Assembly: GCA_963699755.1 (NCBI GenBank)
Contig: CAVOVB010000001.1
Span: forward strand, 96,001-160,000
Length of the DNA stretch: 64,000 bases
Source of the DNA: an uncultured delta proteobacterium
Lineage (GTDB): Bacteria > Myxococcota_A > Polyangia > Polyangiales > Houyiibacteriaceae
Direction: 5' to 3'
Shown: positions 27,101-42,100 of the stretch, one piece after another
Layout of the letters: each line of letters opens with the position of its first letter
Position numbering within the stretch: the stretch's first letter is position 1
Made by a program: the position numbers

Positions 27101-30100
27101 AGGGCCTATTCCAGAGCCGTGGCTACCCAATTCCCGGAGCAGAGCTCTTGGCCTACGAGAATGGAACCCTCACCGGATGCGGTAAGGCCGTCGAAGGTGC
27201 CGCTGATATCGAAATAGCCGCGCGGATCTCTCAGCCGAAAGGCGCCATCCACGACGGGGATATCCGGCGCATACGAAAGGAAGCCATCGCATTGTGCGAA
27301 CGCGATCTCGAGCGAAAACGCCTGACAATCCTTAGCGGACTCCACAGCCTTGGTCAGCGCGGTCCCGTCCGCGTTGAGGTGGAAGCAGATCTCCCAGGGC
27401 GCGCCGGGGCCGGTGTCGCCGGAACCCGTCCAGAGCCCTTCGACCGAAGCTTCGCTGCCGCCCGAGCCACCCATGCCAGCAGCGCCACCGACGCCGCCTG
27501 CGCCTGCCTCACCAGCCACACCGCCGGTCCCGGCAGCCGCGTCACCGCCGCCGTCCGTCGAGCCGCCGCATCCAGCGGCGGGAACGAAGACCAGGGCCCA
27601 CACGCCCAGCCCAATTCCGATGAATTTCTTCAATGCGCCCCCATGAATCGCTTCCTTCCCACAGTCTAGCGTACGCACCAAGCGCGCCAACTCGGGCACG
27701 ACACGGTGGATCTAGCTCGCGAACAGGCCACTCGAGCCCGCCCGAGAGACAGGGACTATGCGTAGAAAGCGGCGATCTCCGAGGCGTACTTCTCGTTCAC
27801 GACGTTGCGCTTCACCTTGAGGGTCGGCGTCAGCTCGCCCCCATCCACGCTGAATACGGTCGGGAGAACCTGGATCTTCTTGATCGTCTGGTAGCGGGCG
27901 ACCTTGGAGTTGCAGAGCTCCTGCACCTCCTTTTCGATGTAGCGCTTCACGTCTGCGTTCCGGGCCGCGGTTTCGACGTCGCTCAGGCCGGAAATCTGAG
28001 AGGCCACCTCGAGCTCCGGCAGGGCCTCGGGGTCGAGGACGATCAAGGCCGACAGATAGGGTTGCCGATCGCCCACCACCACGGCCTGCCCAACACCGGG
28101 GATCGCCTGCAGGTAACCCTCCATCTCGGCGGGCGCGACGTTCTTGCCGCCGGCCGTGATGATGAGGTCCTTCTTGCGTCCTGTGATCGAAATGTAGCCC
28201 TTCTCATCGATCGCACCTAGGTCGCCGGTGTGCATCCAGCCCTCGTCGTCGTAGAGCTGGGCGGTCTTGTCGGGGAGGCGATGGTAGCCCTTCACCATGT
28301 TGACGCCCTTGAGCATGATCTCGCCGTCCTCGGCGATCTTGGCTTCGACGCCGGGAAGCGGCTTGCCGATCGTCCCGAACCGGAGCTTTCCGTACGGCTG
28401 CACGGAGGCAAAGGCCGTGGTCTCGGTCATCCCATAGCCTTCGTGAATCGGCAGGCCGATCGAAGCGAAGAACTCGAGCGTCGAAACCGAAATCGGCGCG
28501 GCGCCACTGACCGCAACCTGCAGTCGATCCAAGCCGAGCGCTTCCTTGATCTTGGAAATGACGAGCTTGTTGGCGAGACTGCGGGAAATGCTCGTCACCG
28601 GACGACCCGTCGCGGCCTCCTGCTTGAAGGCCTCGAGCTCCGTCTTTCGCGCCCAGCTTGCAAGCTTGGTTTTGATGCCGGTGGCCTCGGCGAGCTTGCC
28701 GCGAAGCGCGGCCTCGAACTTCTCCCAAACGCGGGGAACGGCGAGGAAGAACGTCGGGTGCACTTCGACGAGGTAGTCTTTGATCTGCGTGAGGTCGCTG
28801 CAGTAGAACGTTTCAGACTTCAGCGTGAGCCCCGCGAAGTTGGTCATCCCCTGTTCCGCGGCATGGCAGAGTGGCAGATAACTGACCGCGCGCGTCTCGG
28901 TCTCGAGAAGCGTCGGAAATACCTCGGCCACAGCATTGGCGATCAGCTCGATCCCCCGATGGGTGAGCATCGCCCCCTTGGGCAGCCCAGTCGTGCCCGA
29001 CGTGTAGATCAACAGCGCGACGTCGTCCGTCTCGACCGCGTCGAGCCGCGCGTCTAGCTCCGCGTCGCTGATCGAATCGCCCTTCGCCATCAGCCCAGCG
29101 AGGGTGATCACCCGAGGGTCGCGCGAGCCGAGGTCATCCATCGTGACGATGTGCTCGATCGGACTTTCCCCTTTGGCGATCGAGAAGAACTTGTTGAGCT
29201 GAATCTCATCGTCACAGATGACGATTCTCGACTGCGCATTGTTGATGATGTAGGCCATCTGCTCCGGCAGAAGCGTCGTATAGAGGGGCGCCGGAATTCC
29301 CTGAGCGGCGTTGATCCCGTGCTGGCAGATCACCCAGTCGCGCCGATTGGCCCCGACGATCGCCACGCATTCCTCAGGCTGAAGCCCTAGCGCCATGAGC
29401 CCCTTCCCCACCCGCCGAACGCTGTTCCAGTACTCGGCCCAGGTCGAGGTCGCCCAGCCCCCATTCGAGTCCCGATCGTGAATGGCGGGATCGTTCGGGT
29501 GCGCGTCGGCCCAACCTTCGATCCGCGAAAGCATCGTTCCTTGCAACGTCATGGTCCCTCCCTGAAGAGGTGGCTACGCTACTCGATCCGGAGCGGGGAT
29601 CCTAGTCGCGACCGCTGACACGGGCACTGGCGCTGGCGCGGGCACTGAGGCTGGCACTGGCACCGTCTGCAGCCCGCAGCGCCACAGCCCAAAATGGCGG
29701 AGGAGGAGGGATTCGAACACTCCGCGAATTGACCCTCTAAACGAGATCACCGGGTTTTTAGTCAGGGCACCGCATGAGCGGGGCCGCAAAAACCCCAACG
29801 AAAGCCGAGAGCGCGCCGAGGGCGTGACACCGGCCGTGACACTTCCGGCGCACCGCATTGGTGCGGGCGCCTACCCCAATTGCAAAGAGCCGGCCTCCAT
29901 CACAAGGCCGACTCCCTTTTGCGTGCCCCAAGCACGCTCATGGATCACAGATGTCCAGACCATACAGACAAACCGCCAATTCGTCCAGACGACAGCTCAC
30001 GCTCCTACGCGATGACGGCATCGAACATCGCGTGCTCAAGCGGGCCTGCGACGAAATCAGAGACCGCCCGACCACGGCGCCGCTTTGGATTTTCCGGGTC

Positions 30101-39100: not shown

Positions 39101-42100
39101 AACCGAGTTCGCTAGGCTGTTGGGCGTTGCGGAAAAGCGCGTTCAAGAGTGGTGCGAAATGGGGATGCCGTTCATCCCAACCGGCGACATCAAGGGCAAG
39201 CGCATTCGAACGCAGAGTGCGCTGGCATGGCTGGAGGCCCGTGGTGGCTAAGAGGCGTGGCCCTACCGGCGAGGAGCTGCCCGCGGGCATTTCCTGGGAT
39301 GCATCGAAGAGGCGCTACCGCGTCCGCGGCAAGCATGGGGGCAAGACCCTGTCCGATGCGATGAAGAGGAAGCGCGACCTCGACCGTGAGGCGCGTGGTG
39401 TGAAGCCTCACGTACTGTCTGCCTACTTCGACCACTGGGCGGCCTGGCAGCAGCGCAAGGGTCGCCGCAACGTGAAGAAGGACCGCCGCCGCCTCGAGCT
39501 CCACGTCGAACCCACGTTCGGGCAGAAGGCGTTGACTGGCTTGACGCCGCCCGAGCTCCTCGATTTGTATTGGAAGCTCTACGACAGCGGCGATGGTGTG
39601 ATCGGCGCCCGGACGATTCGGGACGTGAACGGACTAATCAGCAGTGTCTACTCGTTGGCGGTGTTCGAGGGGTTGGCGGACTACAACCCAGCAACGCAGA
39701 TGCCGCGCGGTTCGATGCCGAAGGTCGGCGACAACCCCTGGGAGAGGTACGAACCGGGGGAAGTTGTGACCCTGCTTACCGACGAACGAATCCGGCTCGA
39801 CCGCCGCGTGCTTTACGCTCTGCTCTTCTGGTTCGCGGACCGCGAGGGCGAGGGCTGCGGGTTCACGTTTGAGGACTACGACCGCCTCCCGAAGCCTCTA
39901 GGCGCGATGGCAATCGACAAGCAGTACCAGGGGCAGCCGTTGAAGGGCAGCCGAGATGACTACATCGCCGCGCGTCGATTTCCGGTGCATCCCGAAGCCG
40001 CGGCCTTGATCGCGCGCTGGAGATTGTCGGGCTTCCCGTCGATCTTCGGCCGAACCCCTCGATGCGATGACCCGATCGTGCCTAATCCCCGCACCATGAA
40101 GGCCCGCAAGCCGAACGCGGTCTACAAGGCGCTGATCGAAGATGAGAAGCGCGTCGGCATCGAGCACAAGAAGGGTCGCGCGACCCACGGGTTCCGCAAG
40201 TGCTGGATCTCGATGGCGCATGAAGCCGGGGCCAACCGTGAAGCCGTTCGCGTTCTCACACACACTGGGCGGTCGCGCGATGTGCTGGACCGCTATGCAC
40301 TCTGGTCCTGGGACAAGCTCTGCGAAACTGCGGCGCTCGTCGAGCTCCCCGAGACTGCACAAGTGATCGCGTTAGGGGGCCGTCGTGCATGACACCGGCA
40401 TGACACCGTTTGCGTTCGTCGCAGAAAACCCAGCGCGAAGTTGGCGGAGGAGGAGGGATTCGAACCCCCGGTAGAGTCGCCCCTACAACGGATTTCAAAT
40501 CCGCCGCCTTCGACCGCTCGGCCACTCCTCCGTGAGGGGGCGATTTAGCACAGGCTTCGCTCGGTTGCCCTTCCCATTCGAGTCGATCTCGGCCTATATT
40601 TGGCGGTCCCCAGACGGTGGGCGGCTGGGCACTCGAAAGGTGACGCTGTGGCGACTGACACGATTCCAAATCGACTTCTGCAAAGAGCGAAAAGGACCCC
40701 CAACGATCCTGCGTACTACGTACGCGAAGGCGGCAGCTGGAAGCCGACGAGCTGGGGCAGGTACTCCGACCAGGTGACGCAGGCCGGGCGCGCGTTGATC
40801 GCCCTTGGCTTCAAGCCAGGACAGACGGTTTGCATCCTCGGGTTCAATCGCCCCGAATGGGCGATCATCGACCTCGCCACAATGGGTGCCGGCGGCGCGC
40901 CCGCTGGCATCTACACCACCTGCTCCCCCGTCGAGGTTCGTTACATCGTCGCCCATGCCGAAGCGCCGGTCATCATCGTCGAGAATGAAGATCAGTGGCG
41001 CAAGGTTCTAGCGGAACGCGAGAACATGCCGAACCTGAAGCACGTCGTCACGATGAAGGGCTGTCCCCCGATCGCTGACGAGATGGTGATGAGCTGGGAA
41101 GAGTTCATGGCCAAGGGCGACGAGGTCGAGAAGCAGGCTTACCTCGGCCGCGTCGAGAGTCTGAATCCGAAGGCGCTTGCAACTCTGATCTACACCTCCG
41201 GCACGACGGGCCCGCCCAAGGGCGTCATGCTGAGCAACGAGAACCTGGCCTGGACGTCGAACATCGCCATCCAGATCACGACGATCAACTCGACGGATTG
41301 CTCGCTCTCCTATCTGCCGCTTTCGCACATCGCCGAGCAGATGTTCACGCTGCACATTCCGATCACCACCGGCGCGCGGGTGTACTTCGCCGAGTCGATC
41401 GAAGCGGTTCCCGAAAACCTCAAAGAGGTTCAGCCCACCATCTTCTTCGGCGTGCCGCGGATCTGGGAGAAGTTCCACGCCGGCATCTCCGCCAAGCTCG
41501 AGGAAGCGACGGGTGTGAAGGCCAGGCTGGTGAAATGGGCGATGAAGGTCGGCTGGGAGGCCAACCAAAGCCCCGAGGGCACCAAAGGCCTTCAATATGC
41601 GCTCGCCAACAAGCTGATCTATTCGAAGCTCCTGCCAGCGATCGGCATGGGCAATGCCCGGGTTTGCGTCACCGGCGCGGCACCCATTGCACGCGAGGTG
41701 CTCGAATTCTTCGCGAGCTTGGACCTCGTCGTGCTCGAGGTCTATGGGCAGTCGGAGGACAGCGGCCCGACCAGCTTCAACACCCCGACCCGGTATCGTT
41801 TTGGCAGCGTCGGTCCCGCACTGCCGGGGGTCGAGGTGAGGATCGCCGAAGACGACGAGATCATGGTCAAGGGCCCCAACGTGTTCATGGGTTACTACAA
41901 GGACAAGGAGGCAACCGACGAGACGCTCACCGACGGTTGGTTGCATTCGGGTGACTTGGGCGCCTTCGATAAGGACGGGTTCTTGAACATCACTGGCCGC
42001 AAGAAGGACATCATCATCACCGCCGGCGGCAAGAACATCACGCCGAAGAACCTCGAAGCGGCCATCAAGAACCATCCGCTCGTCGACGAAGCCGTGGTGA

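Follow-up and report, generated by a model that had tools for sequence, protein, structure and literature searches.

A tRNA-Ser island with a protease-scaffold-capsid fusion as its only structural gene: a candidate phage satellite in a member of the Polyangiales

What kind of element carries a gene for a phage shell and none for a portal, a terminase or a tail? The question is raised by a 10.8-kb island in an uncultured delta proteobacterium (Polyangiales; Houyiibacteriaceae), located in the 64,000-nucleotide stretch of contig CAVOVB010000001.1 that was analysed here and is referred to as the window. The source genome is a metagenome-derived assembly of 5.35 Mb with an estimated contamination of 9%; the island lies within a 1.95-Mb contig and its flanks are syntenic to the genus.

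The island spans 10,771 bp and is inserted at the 3' end of a tRNA-Ser(tga) gene, located by ARAGORN at 40442-40531 on the reverse strand. The 3'-terminal 24 nt of this gene (40442-40465) constitute attR, and the distal core copy, attL (29695-29718), duplicates them exactly. The window contains just these two exact copies of the 24-mer, with 0 copies expected by chance and no match in any of 100 shuffles. The tRNA-Ser site is empty, with a single core copy, at four of the six same-genus loci examined (G260, G452, G445 and G433), where the left-flank gene ends 14-162 bp from the tRNA; at the remaining two this gene does not occur in the 1.5 kb fetched upstream of the tRNA. The DNA to the left of attL aligns to the empty site of G433, and the attL junction is spanned by a contig from an independent run. 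The insertion is thus recent and precise, as seen from the exact repeat, the empty sites and the bridged junction, and the bounding tRNA-Ser repeat given in a preliminary description of the locus is confirmed with empty sites in at least four genomes of the genus. The genes are co-oriented on one strand (the forward strand for all features below), and those that could be recognised are intact, with profile coverage nearly end to end. The island is a bona fide integrative element, and apparently an intact one.

The only structural gene, at 35414-37318, encodes one polypeptide (618 aa from the database start at 35462) that joins a prohead protease, a scaffold or linker and an HK97-type major capsid protein, and is present in a single copy in the genome. 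The match to phrog_4523 on which the fusion had originally been recognised was reproduced (E 6.9e-130, profile positions 21-642 of 644), and further matches were returned for PF25209 (1.6e-30), PF04586 (2.3e-7) and NF045541, 'prohead protease/major capsid protein fusion' (3.1e-133; bit score 445.6, under the cut-off of 525). Relatives of the fusion were found in 19 of 400 other genomes of a phylum-level sample (E<=1e-10). Among nine metagenome relatives (43-76% identity, 518-649 aa), H86 of the protease part is kept in at least 90% and S134 is invariant; we take these residues to be the catalytic pair.

The island itself yielded no gene for a portal, terminase, connector, tail or lysis function. 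Across the 5.35-Mb genome, eleven family searches and two others were likewise negative for a large terminase, a portal, a tape measure and a second capsid gene, in agreement with the earlier statement that terminase, portal and tail genes are missing from it. A worry had been voiced that three unassigned genes might hide a portal; this is not borne out by their features, which point to a primase-like protein (described below, from language-model features), a beta-propeller lipoprotein and an all-helical orphan (from a low-confidence model). The second of these (33208-35148; probable start 33352, 598 aa) is lipoprotein-like cargo with a Cys-rich stretch followed by a multi-bladed propeller of approximately 50-aa repeats, present in the DNA as seven copies of about 150 nt each. 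It matches NF053835 'PDIAV lipoprotein' weakly (5.1e-8). Its AF2 model is all-beta over residues 200-598 (pLDDT ~85-90), with best folds among the Photorhabdus PLL/PHL propeller lectins (E 2e-13, TM ~0.7 on target), and the protein was rejected as a hidden portal since this is not a portal fold. The third, of 217 aa (38030-38683), is predicted to be all-alpha with nine helices (AF2 pLDDT 60, low confidence); a homologue search returned only the protein itself, and the model had no fold match in BFVD at E<=0.001. Two smaller frames complete the inventory: an orphan of 142 aa and uncertain coding status (29858-30286; GC3 0.70, borderline), without match in Pfam, PHROGs or NCBIfam, and an ORF of 105-116 aa (32824-33174, GC3 0.79) without family match. 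Counted from 32857, the opening 25 nt of the latter are similar to the beginning of the regulator gene at 38743.

The remaining genes serve replication, regulation and integration. A VapE/D5-type helicase is encoded at 31433-32713 (PF05272 3.6e-79, profile positions 1-213 of 217; phrog_1313 3.1e-97). The 326-aa protein encoded directly upstream (30456-31436), with a C-terminal Cys/His cluster, has no HMM match in Pfam, PHROGs or NCBIfam. An Atlas search on language-model features, without alignment, scored it at 0.97-0.99 to viral clusters, among them one that is 84% PF16793 RepB_primase and one that is 98% PF08800 BT4734-like_N. As a lead, it may be a primase-like partner of the VapE protein, whose start overlaps the end of its ORF by 4 nt. 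A 70-aa XRE/Cro-CI-type regulator (38743-38955; HTH_3 1.8e-14, above cut-off) shares 50% identity across 60 aa with the matching region of a related copy in a sister species (G047), and a 63-aa protein (37785-37976) is possibly a ribbon-helix-helix regulator, given a weak RHH_1 match below cut-off (E 0.014). The maximal ORF of the tyrosine integrase (39127-40392; alternative GTG start 39241) matches phrog_1 (1.3e-24) and PF22022 (3.4e-6), is 42-56% identical to the G047 integrase, and contains by eye the residues R..HxxR..H..Y, presumably the tyrosine integrase motif. The initial assignments of helicase and integrase were thus both recovered. The adjoining 97-aa protein (38958-39251) had been called small-terminase-like. 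Its match to phrog_57 'terminase small subunit' is reproducible (9.4e-7) but covers only the helix-turn-helix part (profile positions 9-62 of 199), and phrog_57 matches occur in 11 of 14 control genomes; the terminase assignment was discarded. Judging from its weak matches to HTH_17 (0.0015; MerR/excisionase/AlpA-type) and phrog_66 'excisionase and transcriptional regulator' (0.0097), it is most likely an excisionase or an AlpA-type protein or activator.

With one all-in-one shell gene and no packaging or tail genes, the island is most likely a parasite of a phage. We give about even odds to its being an integrative capsid-encoding phage satellite, with its own shell gene and everything else borrowed. 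Of the satellite reading put forward in the preliminary description, the intact-looking integrative element, the capsid fusion as sole structural gene and the recurrence of the design all stand, but the small terminase does not. In such a cycle, infection by a helper phage would derepress the island, the integrase and the HTH_17 protein would excise it, and its own primase and helicase would replicate it. The fusion protein would then be expressed and form small shells, fit for approximately 10 kb, on the portal of the helper. Neither a TerS nor a recognisable cos or pac site was found in the island, a point against this reading; because it lacks its own TerS, packaging is proposed to proceed by the helper's terminase through a cos or pac site mimicking that of the helper. 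The helper's connectors, tail and lysis functions would complete the particle.

The satellite scenario has to be weighed against decay, in which a head-only element of the cf-PICI type or a prophage at tRNA-Ser would have shed terminase, portal and further head genes through deletion, leaving the island inert or capable of excision only. Most relatives of the capsid gene are found in phages or in head-only elements with portal and terminase: it neighbours the cognate portal and/or TerL at 44 of 54 genome loci and at 42 of 43 viral loci having 6 kb or more of upstream sequence. The alphaproteobacterial relatives (L096, L109, L141 and others) have a head-only gene set, as in cf-PICIs. Like the island, cf-PICIs of the EcCIEDL933 type carry genes for integrase, regulator and replication at their left side, an HK97-type capsid and protease of their own and no tail genes. 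They are set apart from it by the portal, head-tail connectors, HNH, TerS and TerL that they encode according to the accessible text of 10.1101/2022.09.08.507074; SatelliteFinder, as described in the available part of 10.1101/2022.09.14.508007, sets its threshold at 9 of 11 core components. Decay is also evident among the relatives. The G047 copy, 59-70% identical, is a pseudogene whose coding sequence is frameshifted, runs through several frames and contains a stop; an in-frame stop also interrupts the D5-type gene of a second sister-species island (G260), and L009 and L030 are plainly ruined loci. G260 further has a full TerS immediately 5' of the capsid gene, in the position that TerL to portal occupy in full elements, and this looks like a deletion scar. 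Searches of genome, genus, family and phage records produced no helper: the cognate portal family phrog_21 was absent from all 61 genomes of the bacterial family, the cognate TerL phrog_15 from all 27 other genus genomes sampled and from G000, and neither half of the island matched any of 50,697 phage records at the DNA level.

Several observations speak against decay, beginning with the two perfect att copies and the intact, co-oriented genes noted above. The same reduced gene set lies within intact att repeats of 44-51 bp at four other tRNA sites, out of seven loci tested. One is the G260 island (9.8 kb, 51-bp repeat, tRNA-Asp), which matches the locus earlier listed as G073; its integrase, MT-A70/ParB, D5-type and capsid genes (the last at 39% identity) were found as reported, with TerS and the att repeat as additions. 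The others are on gammaproteobacterial contigs: L057 (9.6 kb, 46 bp, tRNA-Glu), L072 (9.2 kb, 45 bp, tRNA-Asn) and L033 (10.5 kb, 44 bp, tRNA-Glu). Neither Pfam nor PHROGs detected TerL or a portal in these four, and TerS, missing from the window's island, is present in G260, L057 and L059. Two related islands without detected att repeat come from Betaproteobacteria; L059 and L074 combine integrase, Toprim primase, DUF3987 and capsid. In the capsid tree, a clade with support 1.0 unites the sequences of the window and G260 with the nine metagenome proteins; only two of its eleven members (window and G260) have a known capsid-only context, and its sister is L082, a real myophage fragment. The capsid-only L007, L057, L074 and L059 cluster with the short contigs L075 and L058. 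The tree needs five label changes against a shuffle mean of 8.8, and five or fewer arose in 1 of 2000 shuffles, a figure that is not a probability because kin share labels. The capsid-only state is clade-wide across 39-77% capsid identity rather than scattered, and the capsid ORFs stay full-length over that divergence. We regard the decaying remnant as unlikely, though a serious contender.

The five bounded islands range only from 9.2 to 10.8 kb. Satellite P4 likewise integrates at a tRNA, has about 11 kb and a primase-helicase, and makes small capsids. It uses the external scaffold Sid to remodel the capsid protein of its helper; family profile searches of the island gave no match to Sid, Psu or other P4 core proteins. 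The island sizes are close to the 11.6 kb of the P4 genome, which is packaged in a T=4 capsid (accessible text of PMC13669383).

An autonomous, portal-less mini HK97 element, moving DNA in shells without portal, terminase or tail, or an encapsulin-like compartment, appears very improbable. To our knowledge, no portal-free mechanism of dsDNA packaging exists for HK97 capsids. Where the context is known, the nearest capsid relatives belong to ordinary tailed phages or to head-only elements that have portals. Phages of the Rhodobacter RcDormio group, Pseudomonas and Ralstonia have members of the same protein family, 26-33% identical across 74-96% of the length and annotated as 'major capsid and protease fusion protein', in records of 24-45 kb as opposed to 10.8 kb; L082, the one viral contig whose other gene content was inspected, has neck, baseplate and sheath genes. 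Both options are raised, beside a satellite hypothesis, in an October 2026 paper (Aguilar et al. 2026; PMC13669383) whose accessible parts describe 'twilight-zone' mini HK97 genomes of ~8.75 kb with an integrase and RepA or helicase, MCP and scaffold as sole structural proteins and no portal, terminase or tail, and call the portal indispensable in every known member of the Duplodnaviria. As described there, these genomes resemble the island in size (~9-10 kb), integrase (sometimes with excisionase), regulators and helicase or replication genes; they are mainly from the human gut, with MCPs enriched in encapsulin domains and often RepA. The island belongs to a sediment bacterium, lacks a rolling-circle Rep and has primase and VapE instead, fuses its capsid to a protease, and gave no encapsulin domain match at E<=0.01 in family profile searches.

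The proposed satellite cycle would work like that of cos-type SaPIs such as SaPIbov5, which share integrase, regulators and primase or replication genes with the island (accessible text of PMC8569155 and PMC5052747). SaPIbov5 likewise has a lone capsid homologue as head gene, Ccm, which redirects helper capsid assembly, and no terS; portal, terminase and tail come from the helper, an arrangement that for the island is proposed from its genes. The claim that a minimal capsid-only design would be new was thus overstated, being preceded, on the available text, by Ccm (PMC8569155) and by the mini HK97 genomes (PMC13669383). Since satellite capsid homologues disturb helper assembly (Ccm; PMC8569155, PMC5052747, as far as accessible), the fusion could instead be a decoy subunit that poisons head assembly of related phages and shields the host, with other or rare mobility of the island. 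A Sie-like gene in the G260 island (phrog_8545, 7.9e-5) and the surface lipoprotein cargo in the window's island would fit such a defence role. In known systems, however, interference does not exclude satellite spread; the narrow island sizes and the TerS of several sister islands point to packaging, and a mere decoy would not need the retained protease and scaffold parts. We consider defence alone improbable.

Judged by its profile matches (PF25209/NF045541), the capsid of the island would belong to another HK97 lineage than Ccm, and the host phylum differs. Ccm is described as a capsid homologue alone (PMC8569155, accessible text), and the island differs from cos-type SaPIs in that its shell gene is, as predicted from its sequence, a complete protease-scaffold-capsid unit. 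The capsid-only design is not specific to Myxococcota, given the similar islands in Gammaproteobacteria and Betaproteobacteria. Its recurrence in related and unrelated hosts, the intact att repeats and the clustering in the capsid tree favour a maintained lifestyle over random decay.

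Exact copies of the 24-mer that the preliminary description had reported as a direct repeat are confined to two sites in the window, 29695–29718 and 40442–40465, and none arose in 100 shuffles. The second copy coincides with the 3' end of a tRNA-Ser(tga) gene identified by ARAGORN on the minus strand (40442–40531), and the repeats therefore bound 10,771 bp of DNA, which is an insertion. The right flank and the tRNA are conserved in all 31 genomes of the genus searched, the genome studied here included. At four of six loci examined, those of the congeneric genomes G260, G452, G445 and G433, the counterpart of the acyl-CoA synthetase gene on the left flank stops 14–162 bp short of the tRNA, and the core is present once; at the remaining two, no such gene occurs in the 1.5 kb retrieved on the upstream side of the tRNA. 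When attL, attR and the G433 site were aligned, the expected attB emerged, composed of left flank, core and tRNA. The GC content of the island (0.59–0.66) presents no contrast with its surroundings. Two sediment-metagenome runs from one study contain the island, in low-depth contigs only; these include no joint of 29695 to 40465, no circle and no empty site, and at roughly 3–5x their depth is uninformative either way.

The tRNA-Ser gene is situated between two paralogous long-chain acyl-CoA synthetase genes in divergent orientation (27756–29552, minus strand; 40600–42435, plus strand), a conserved arrangement within the genus. Four clustered tRNA genes (Ser-cga, Ser-gga, Arg-acg and Ser-gct) are found at 20811–22303, 7 kb upstream of the island.

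All credible genes of the island lie on the plus strand. A 326-aa protein (30456–31436) matches no HMM and has no relative among PDB sequences (best E 0.071). Its protein-atlas features score 0.97–0.99 beside viral clusters, one of them 84% RepB_primase and one 98% BT4734-like_N; a primase-like identity, which fits the 4-nt overlap with the VapE helicase gene (31433–32713; PF05272, 3.6e-79), is offered as a lead. The gene at 33208–35148 carries seven DNA repeats of about 150 nt and encodes a 598-aa lipoprotein-like protein with a weak lipoprotein-family match. It is confidently modelled as an all-beta propeller with best likeness to the Photorhabdus PLL/PHL lectins, and we read the gene as putative cargo. 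That the role of the island is mainly defensive seems to us improbable.

The sole structural gene encodes a prohead protease, scaffold and HK97 capsid fusion (35414–37318) that matches phrog_4523 end to end (6.9e-130), together with PF25209 and PF04586, and is present as one copy in the genome. Against NF045541, 'prohead protease/major capsid protein fusion', it scores 445.6 bits (E 3.1e-133, positions 2–632 of 634); though this is under the curated cut-off of 525 bits, the protein is a clear full-length homologue. Downstream of the capsid fusion are a possible RHH regulator (E 0.014) and a 217-aa orphan with an all-helical, low-confidence model and no fold match. A clear XRE regulator (38743–38955; HTH_3, 1.8e-14) and a protein with a weak HTH_17 match (38958–39251; 0.0015) are also encoded, the latter with an integrase gene downstream of it (phrog_1, 1.3e-24). 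The start of the XRE gene (38743–38767) and that of a small ORF (32857–32881) are 88% identical over 25 nt and both begin MTGT, which may be due to chance or to a shared start region.

It had been feared that the unassigned genes might hide a portal. With the 326-aa protein primase-like, the 598-aa protein a predicted propeller and the 217-aa protein an orphan lacking a fold match, a portal or terminase concealed among them was ruled out. The HTH_17 protein had been described as small-terminase-like. Its match to phrog_57, however, is limited to the helix-turn-helix (profile positions 9–62 of 199) and the protein stops right after it, so that the island is without a recognisable TerS. The same profile is matched in 11 of 14 control genomes; in the genome studied here this helix-turn-helix is its only hit. 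As the protein adjoins the integrase, it is more likely an excisionase or of AlpA type.

The genome (5.35 Mb, 11 contigs; completeness estimated at 100% and contamination at 9%) was searched for packaging genes and a potential helper. The TerL families PF03354, PF03237, PF04466, PF05876 and phrog_15, the portal families PF04860, PF05133 and phrog_21, the tape-measure family PF10145 and the capsid family PF05065 returned zero matches; TerL and portal are thus absent genome-wide for the families named, and within these the earlier observation that no helper-type prophage is present holds. The cognate portal, phrog_21, was found in none of 61 genomes of the bacterial family, and the cognate TerL, phrog_15, in three of these 61, none of which was among the 27 other genomes of the genus sampled. 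Among the ORFs of the island, Pfam and PHROGs revealed no portal, HNH, head-tail adaptor or connector (connectors at E ≤ 0.01), tail or lysis genes, and neither half of the island has a DNA match in 50,697 phage records.

The inventory of the island was compared with those of known systems. The core genes of P4-like satellites are Sid, Psu, delta, epsilon and alpha (in part 10.1101/2022.09.14.508007). None of these was matched in the island by PHROGs or Pfam, and what is shared with the group is an integrase and an AlpA-like HTH only. The set that defines cf-PICIs comprises capsid, protease, portal, head-tail connectors, HNH, TerS and TerL (10.1101/2022.09.08.507074). The island resembles them in its integrase, its AlpA/MerR-type regulator (HTH_17, weak; also HTH_3) and its primase-replicase module, in possessing its own major capsid protein and prohead protease, fused in one gene, and in having no tail or lysis genes. 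In contrast to them it has no portal, TerL, HNH, TerS or head-tail adaptor/connector, and since it fails on five components it is not a cf-PICI. SatelliteFinder, according to its description, requires at least 9 of 11 core components (10.1101/2022.09.14.508007), and marine VEIMEs are presented as having no capsid genes (PMC9618062).

Closer parallels exist. The only head gene of cos-type SaPIs is the capsid homologue Ccm (PMC8569155); the only head gene of the island is likewise a lone capsid-protein homologue, with no terS, and by analogy of mechanism the island would be closest to these SaPIs. The portal-less mini HK97 genomes of the human gut are described as encoding encapsulin-like capsid proteins and often RepA (PMC13669383). 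These 'twilight-zone' genomes agree with the island in being small, in carrying integrase and replication genes, in having the MCP (with scaffold) as sole structural component and in lacking portal, terminase and tail; they differ in that the MCPs of their dominant group are enriched in encapsulin domains, whereas the island has no encapsulin Pfam match at E ≤ 0.01 (PMC13669383). That the island is a portal-less autonomous element appears very improbable.

The capsid family occurs in real phages: 145 phage records contain relatives, all below 60% identity, and those of Rhodobacter phages are annotated 'major capsid and protease fusion protein'. A single-protein scan of genome contigs and an alignment-based scan of metagenome contigs returned no capsid relative. 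Profile scans yielded 284 relatives from species-representative genomes and 501 from IMG/VR; of each set the best 80 were kept. The contigs of capsid relatives and of VapE relatives show no size coincidence, and linkage of the two genes is neither shown nor excluded by this comparison. Annotated loci served to build HMMs of the cognate TerS, TerL, portal and decoration proteins, which were run on all loci. Of the loci in the best-80 sets that extend at least 6 kb upstream of the capsid gene, 44 of 54 from genomes and 42 of 43 from viruses have the cognate portal and/or TerL, whereas 10 and 1, respectively, have neither. Many of the loci with portal and/or TerL (hereafter, full) are elements of about 11–12 kb, not phages. 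Three of them, L096, L109 and L141, comprise a primase or Rep, TerS, TerL, portal, capsid fusion and a terminal integrase, with a decoration protein in the last two and no tail match in any; judged by gene content, they are head-only and cf-PICI-like. They belong, like further head-only elements of about 11–12 kb, to Alphaproteobacteria (Rhodobacterales, Stappia, Pseudovibrio and others); the further ones are seen at IMG/VR loci L119, L136, L147, L152 and L159 and at many genome loci, L018, L035 and L041 among them.

Capsid loci with neither portal nor TerL (hereafter, capsid-only) recur elsewhere, among them clean small islands. In G260 an integrase, MT-A70/ParB, a D5-type gene, a full-length TerS (phrog_57, 7.9e-15), a capsid fusion of 39% identity and a Sie-like gene are found with a tRNA-Asp. 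Locus L057 holds an integrase, an AAA_25 helicase, two TerS paralogues (one also matching PF07471, Nu1) and the capsid; L059 and L074 an integrase, Toprim primase, DUF3987 and capsid, with TerS-like ORFs in L059; and L072 an integrase, an Xis-like protein, a primase piece and the capsid. Direct repeats derived from tRNAs were detected at four of seven loci searched, G260 (51 bp), L057 (46 bp), L072 (45 bp) and L033 (44 bp, tRNA-Glu), bounding 9.8, 9.6, 9.2 and 10.5 kb, respectively. L013 has a 15-bp repeat only, and L059 and L007 have no repeat of at least 14 bp.

Directly upstream of the capsid fusion, L057 (8343–9309) and L059 (6038–6782) each carry a tandem pair of TerS-like (phrog_57) genes, which may represent a duplicated or split small terminase. 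At four loci, L033 (9110–14004), L013 (9044–13302), L030 (9767–13552) and L009 (6147–11770), a ClpP- or S78-type capsid fusion adjoins a tape-measure-like gene (PF10145 or phrog_2335), and no portal or terminase was found there. This pairing is odd, and in L033 it falls within the 10.5-kb island; its capsid fusion is of ClpP type in L033 and L013, and L009 and L030 look like wrecks.

The phylogeny of the capsid was estimated with FastTree from 146 sequences, of which 114 were from full loci, 9 from capsid-only loci, 14 from loci of unknown context and 9 from metagenome proteins. Presumed duplicates or fragments (L001, L162, L163, L183, L108, L116 and L154) and matches of fewer than 450 profile positions were left out. 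The capsids of the window and G260 form one clade with the nine metagenome proteins (support 1.0), in which context is known for two of 11 members. Its sister, with support of 0.999, is the viral contig L082, which carries genes for portal, neck, baseplate and sheath. The capsid-only loci L007, L057, L074 and L059 group with the short contigs L075 and L058 (deep support 0.55, subclades 0.98–1.0), adjoining a clade that represents the alphaproteobacterial head-only elements and counts 69 full loci among its 71 sequences. Over the 123 leaves of known state there are 5 changes of the full or capsid-only label; 2000 shuffles gave 8.8 on average, and one of them 5 or fewer. This shows that the label is clustered on the tree and, as kin share labels, is not to be taken as a probability.

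Some of the nearest kin are in decay. A related element in G047, of the same genus (L183, 1–4310), has a capsid gene split over at least four frame pieces and containing one stop; homologues of the XRE/HTH and integrase genes come after it, as does an inverted att-like piece of tRNA-Ser of 34 nt. The counterpart of the gene on the window's left flank is 7 kb off and reversed, which suggests that this locus has been rearranged. The D5-type primase-helicase gene of G260 (L181, 9015–10688) is in one frame with a single in-frame stop, and the stretch preceding it resembles a local frameshift. Either the gene is a pseudogene or the assembly is wrong here. That the island of the window is itself a dead remnant is the rival that we take most seriously, and we consider it unlikely.

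The best available reading is that the island is a working phage satellite, on which we find our judgement evenly poised. It is favoured by the recent, precise insertion and the intact genes, by a capsid ORF that stays full-length across 39% to 77% identity, by the recurrence of the same reduced set, flanked by intact att repeats, at five tRNA sites belonging to three bacterial groups, and by a narrow size range of 9.2–10.8 kb, near that of P4. It is weakened by the failure to find a helper, by the lack of TerS or cos in the island, by two orphan ORFs, by the decay in G047 and G260 and by the context known for so few members of the clade. Of the satellite first proposed, the insertion is real and the reading stands as the best at hand, but the terminase claim falls and the minimal capsid-only design has precedents in Ccm and mini HK97.

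Literature searches found no phage satellites described in myxobacteria or Myxococcota, the nearest myxococcal passages being on encapsulins, and work on the capsid-protease fusion concerns, by title, complete phages and metaviral capsid genes in mammals with no satellite mentioned; in both cases supplements could list similar elements. Somewhat against the balance of our own expectation, we tentatively propose an undescribed, cross-phylum class of tRNA-integrating satellites of about 9–11 kb, standing between classical PICIs and cf-PICIs. Their sole morphogenetic gene would be the protease-scaffold-HK97 fusion, with or without TerS, and they would assemble a small shell of their own on a portal taken from a helper, whose motor, connectors and tails they would also use. 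The islands of the window and G260 would be the first in Myxococcota, with a second lineage in Beta- and Gammaproteobacteria.

If true, this would provide a chromosomal counterpart for the portal-less mini HK97 genomes (2026), with att sites, empty sites in sister species and traceable ancestry. It would also extend satellites to the phylum Myxococcota. Satellites are known either to remodel the capsid protein of their helper or to encode a full head. A shell subunit alone, accompanied by a protease and scaffold of its own, would bridge PICIs and cf-PICIs, and raises the question of whether a foreign capsid protein may assemble on the portal of another phage.
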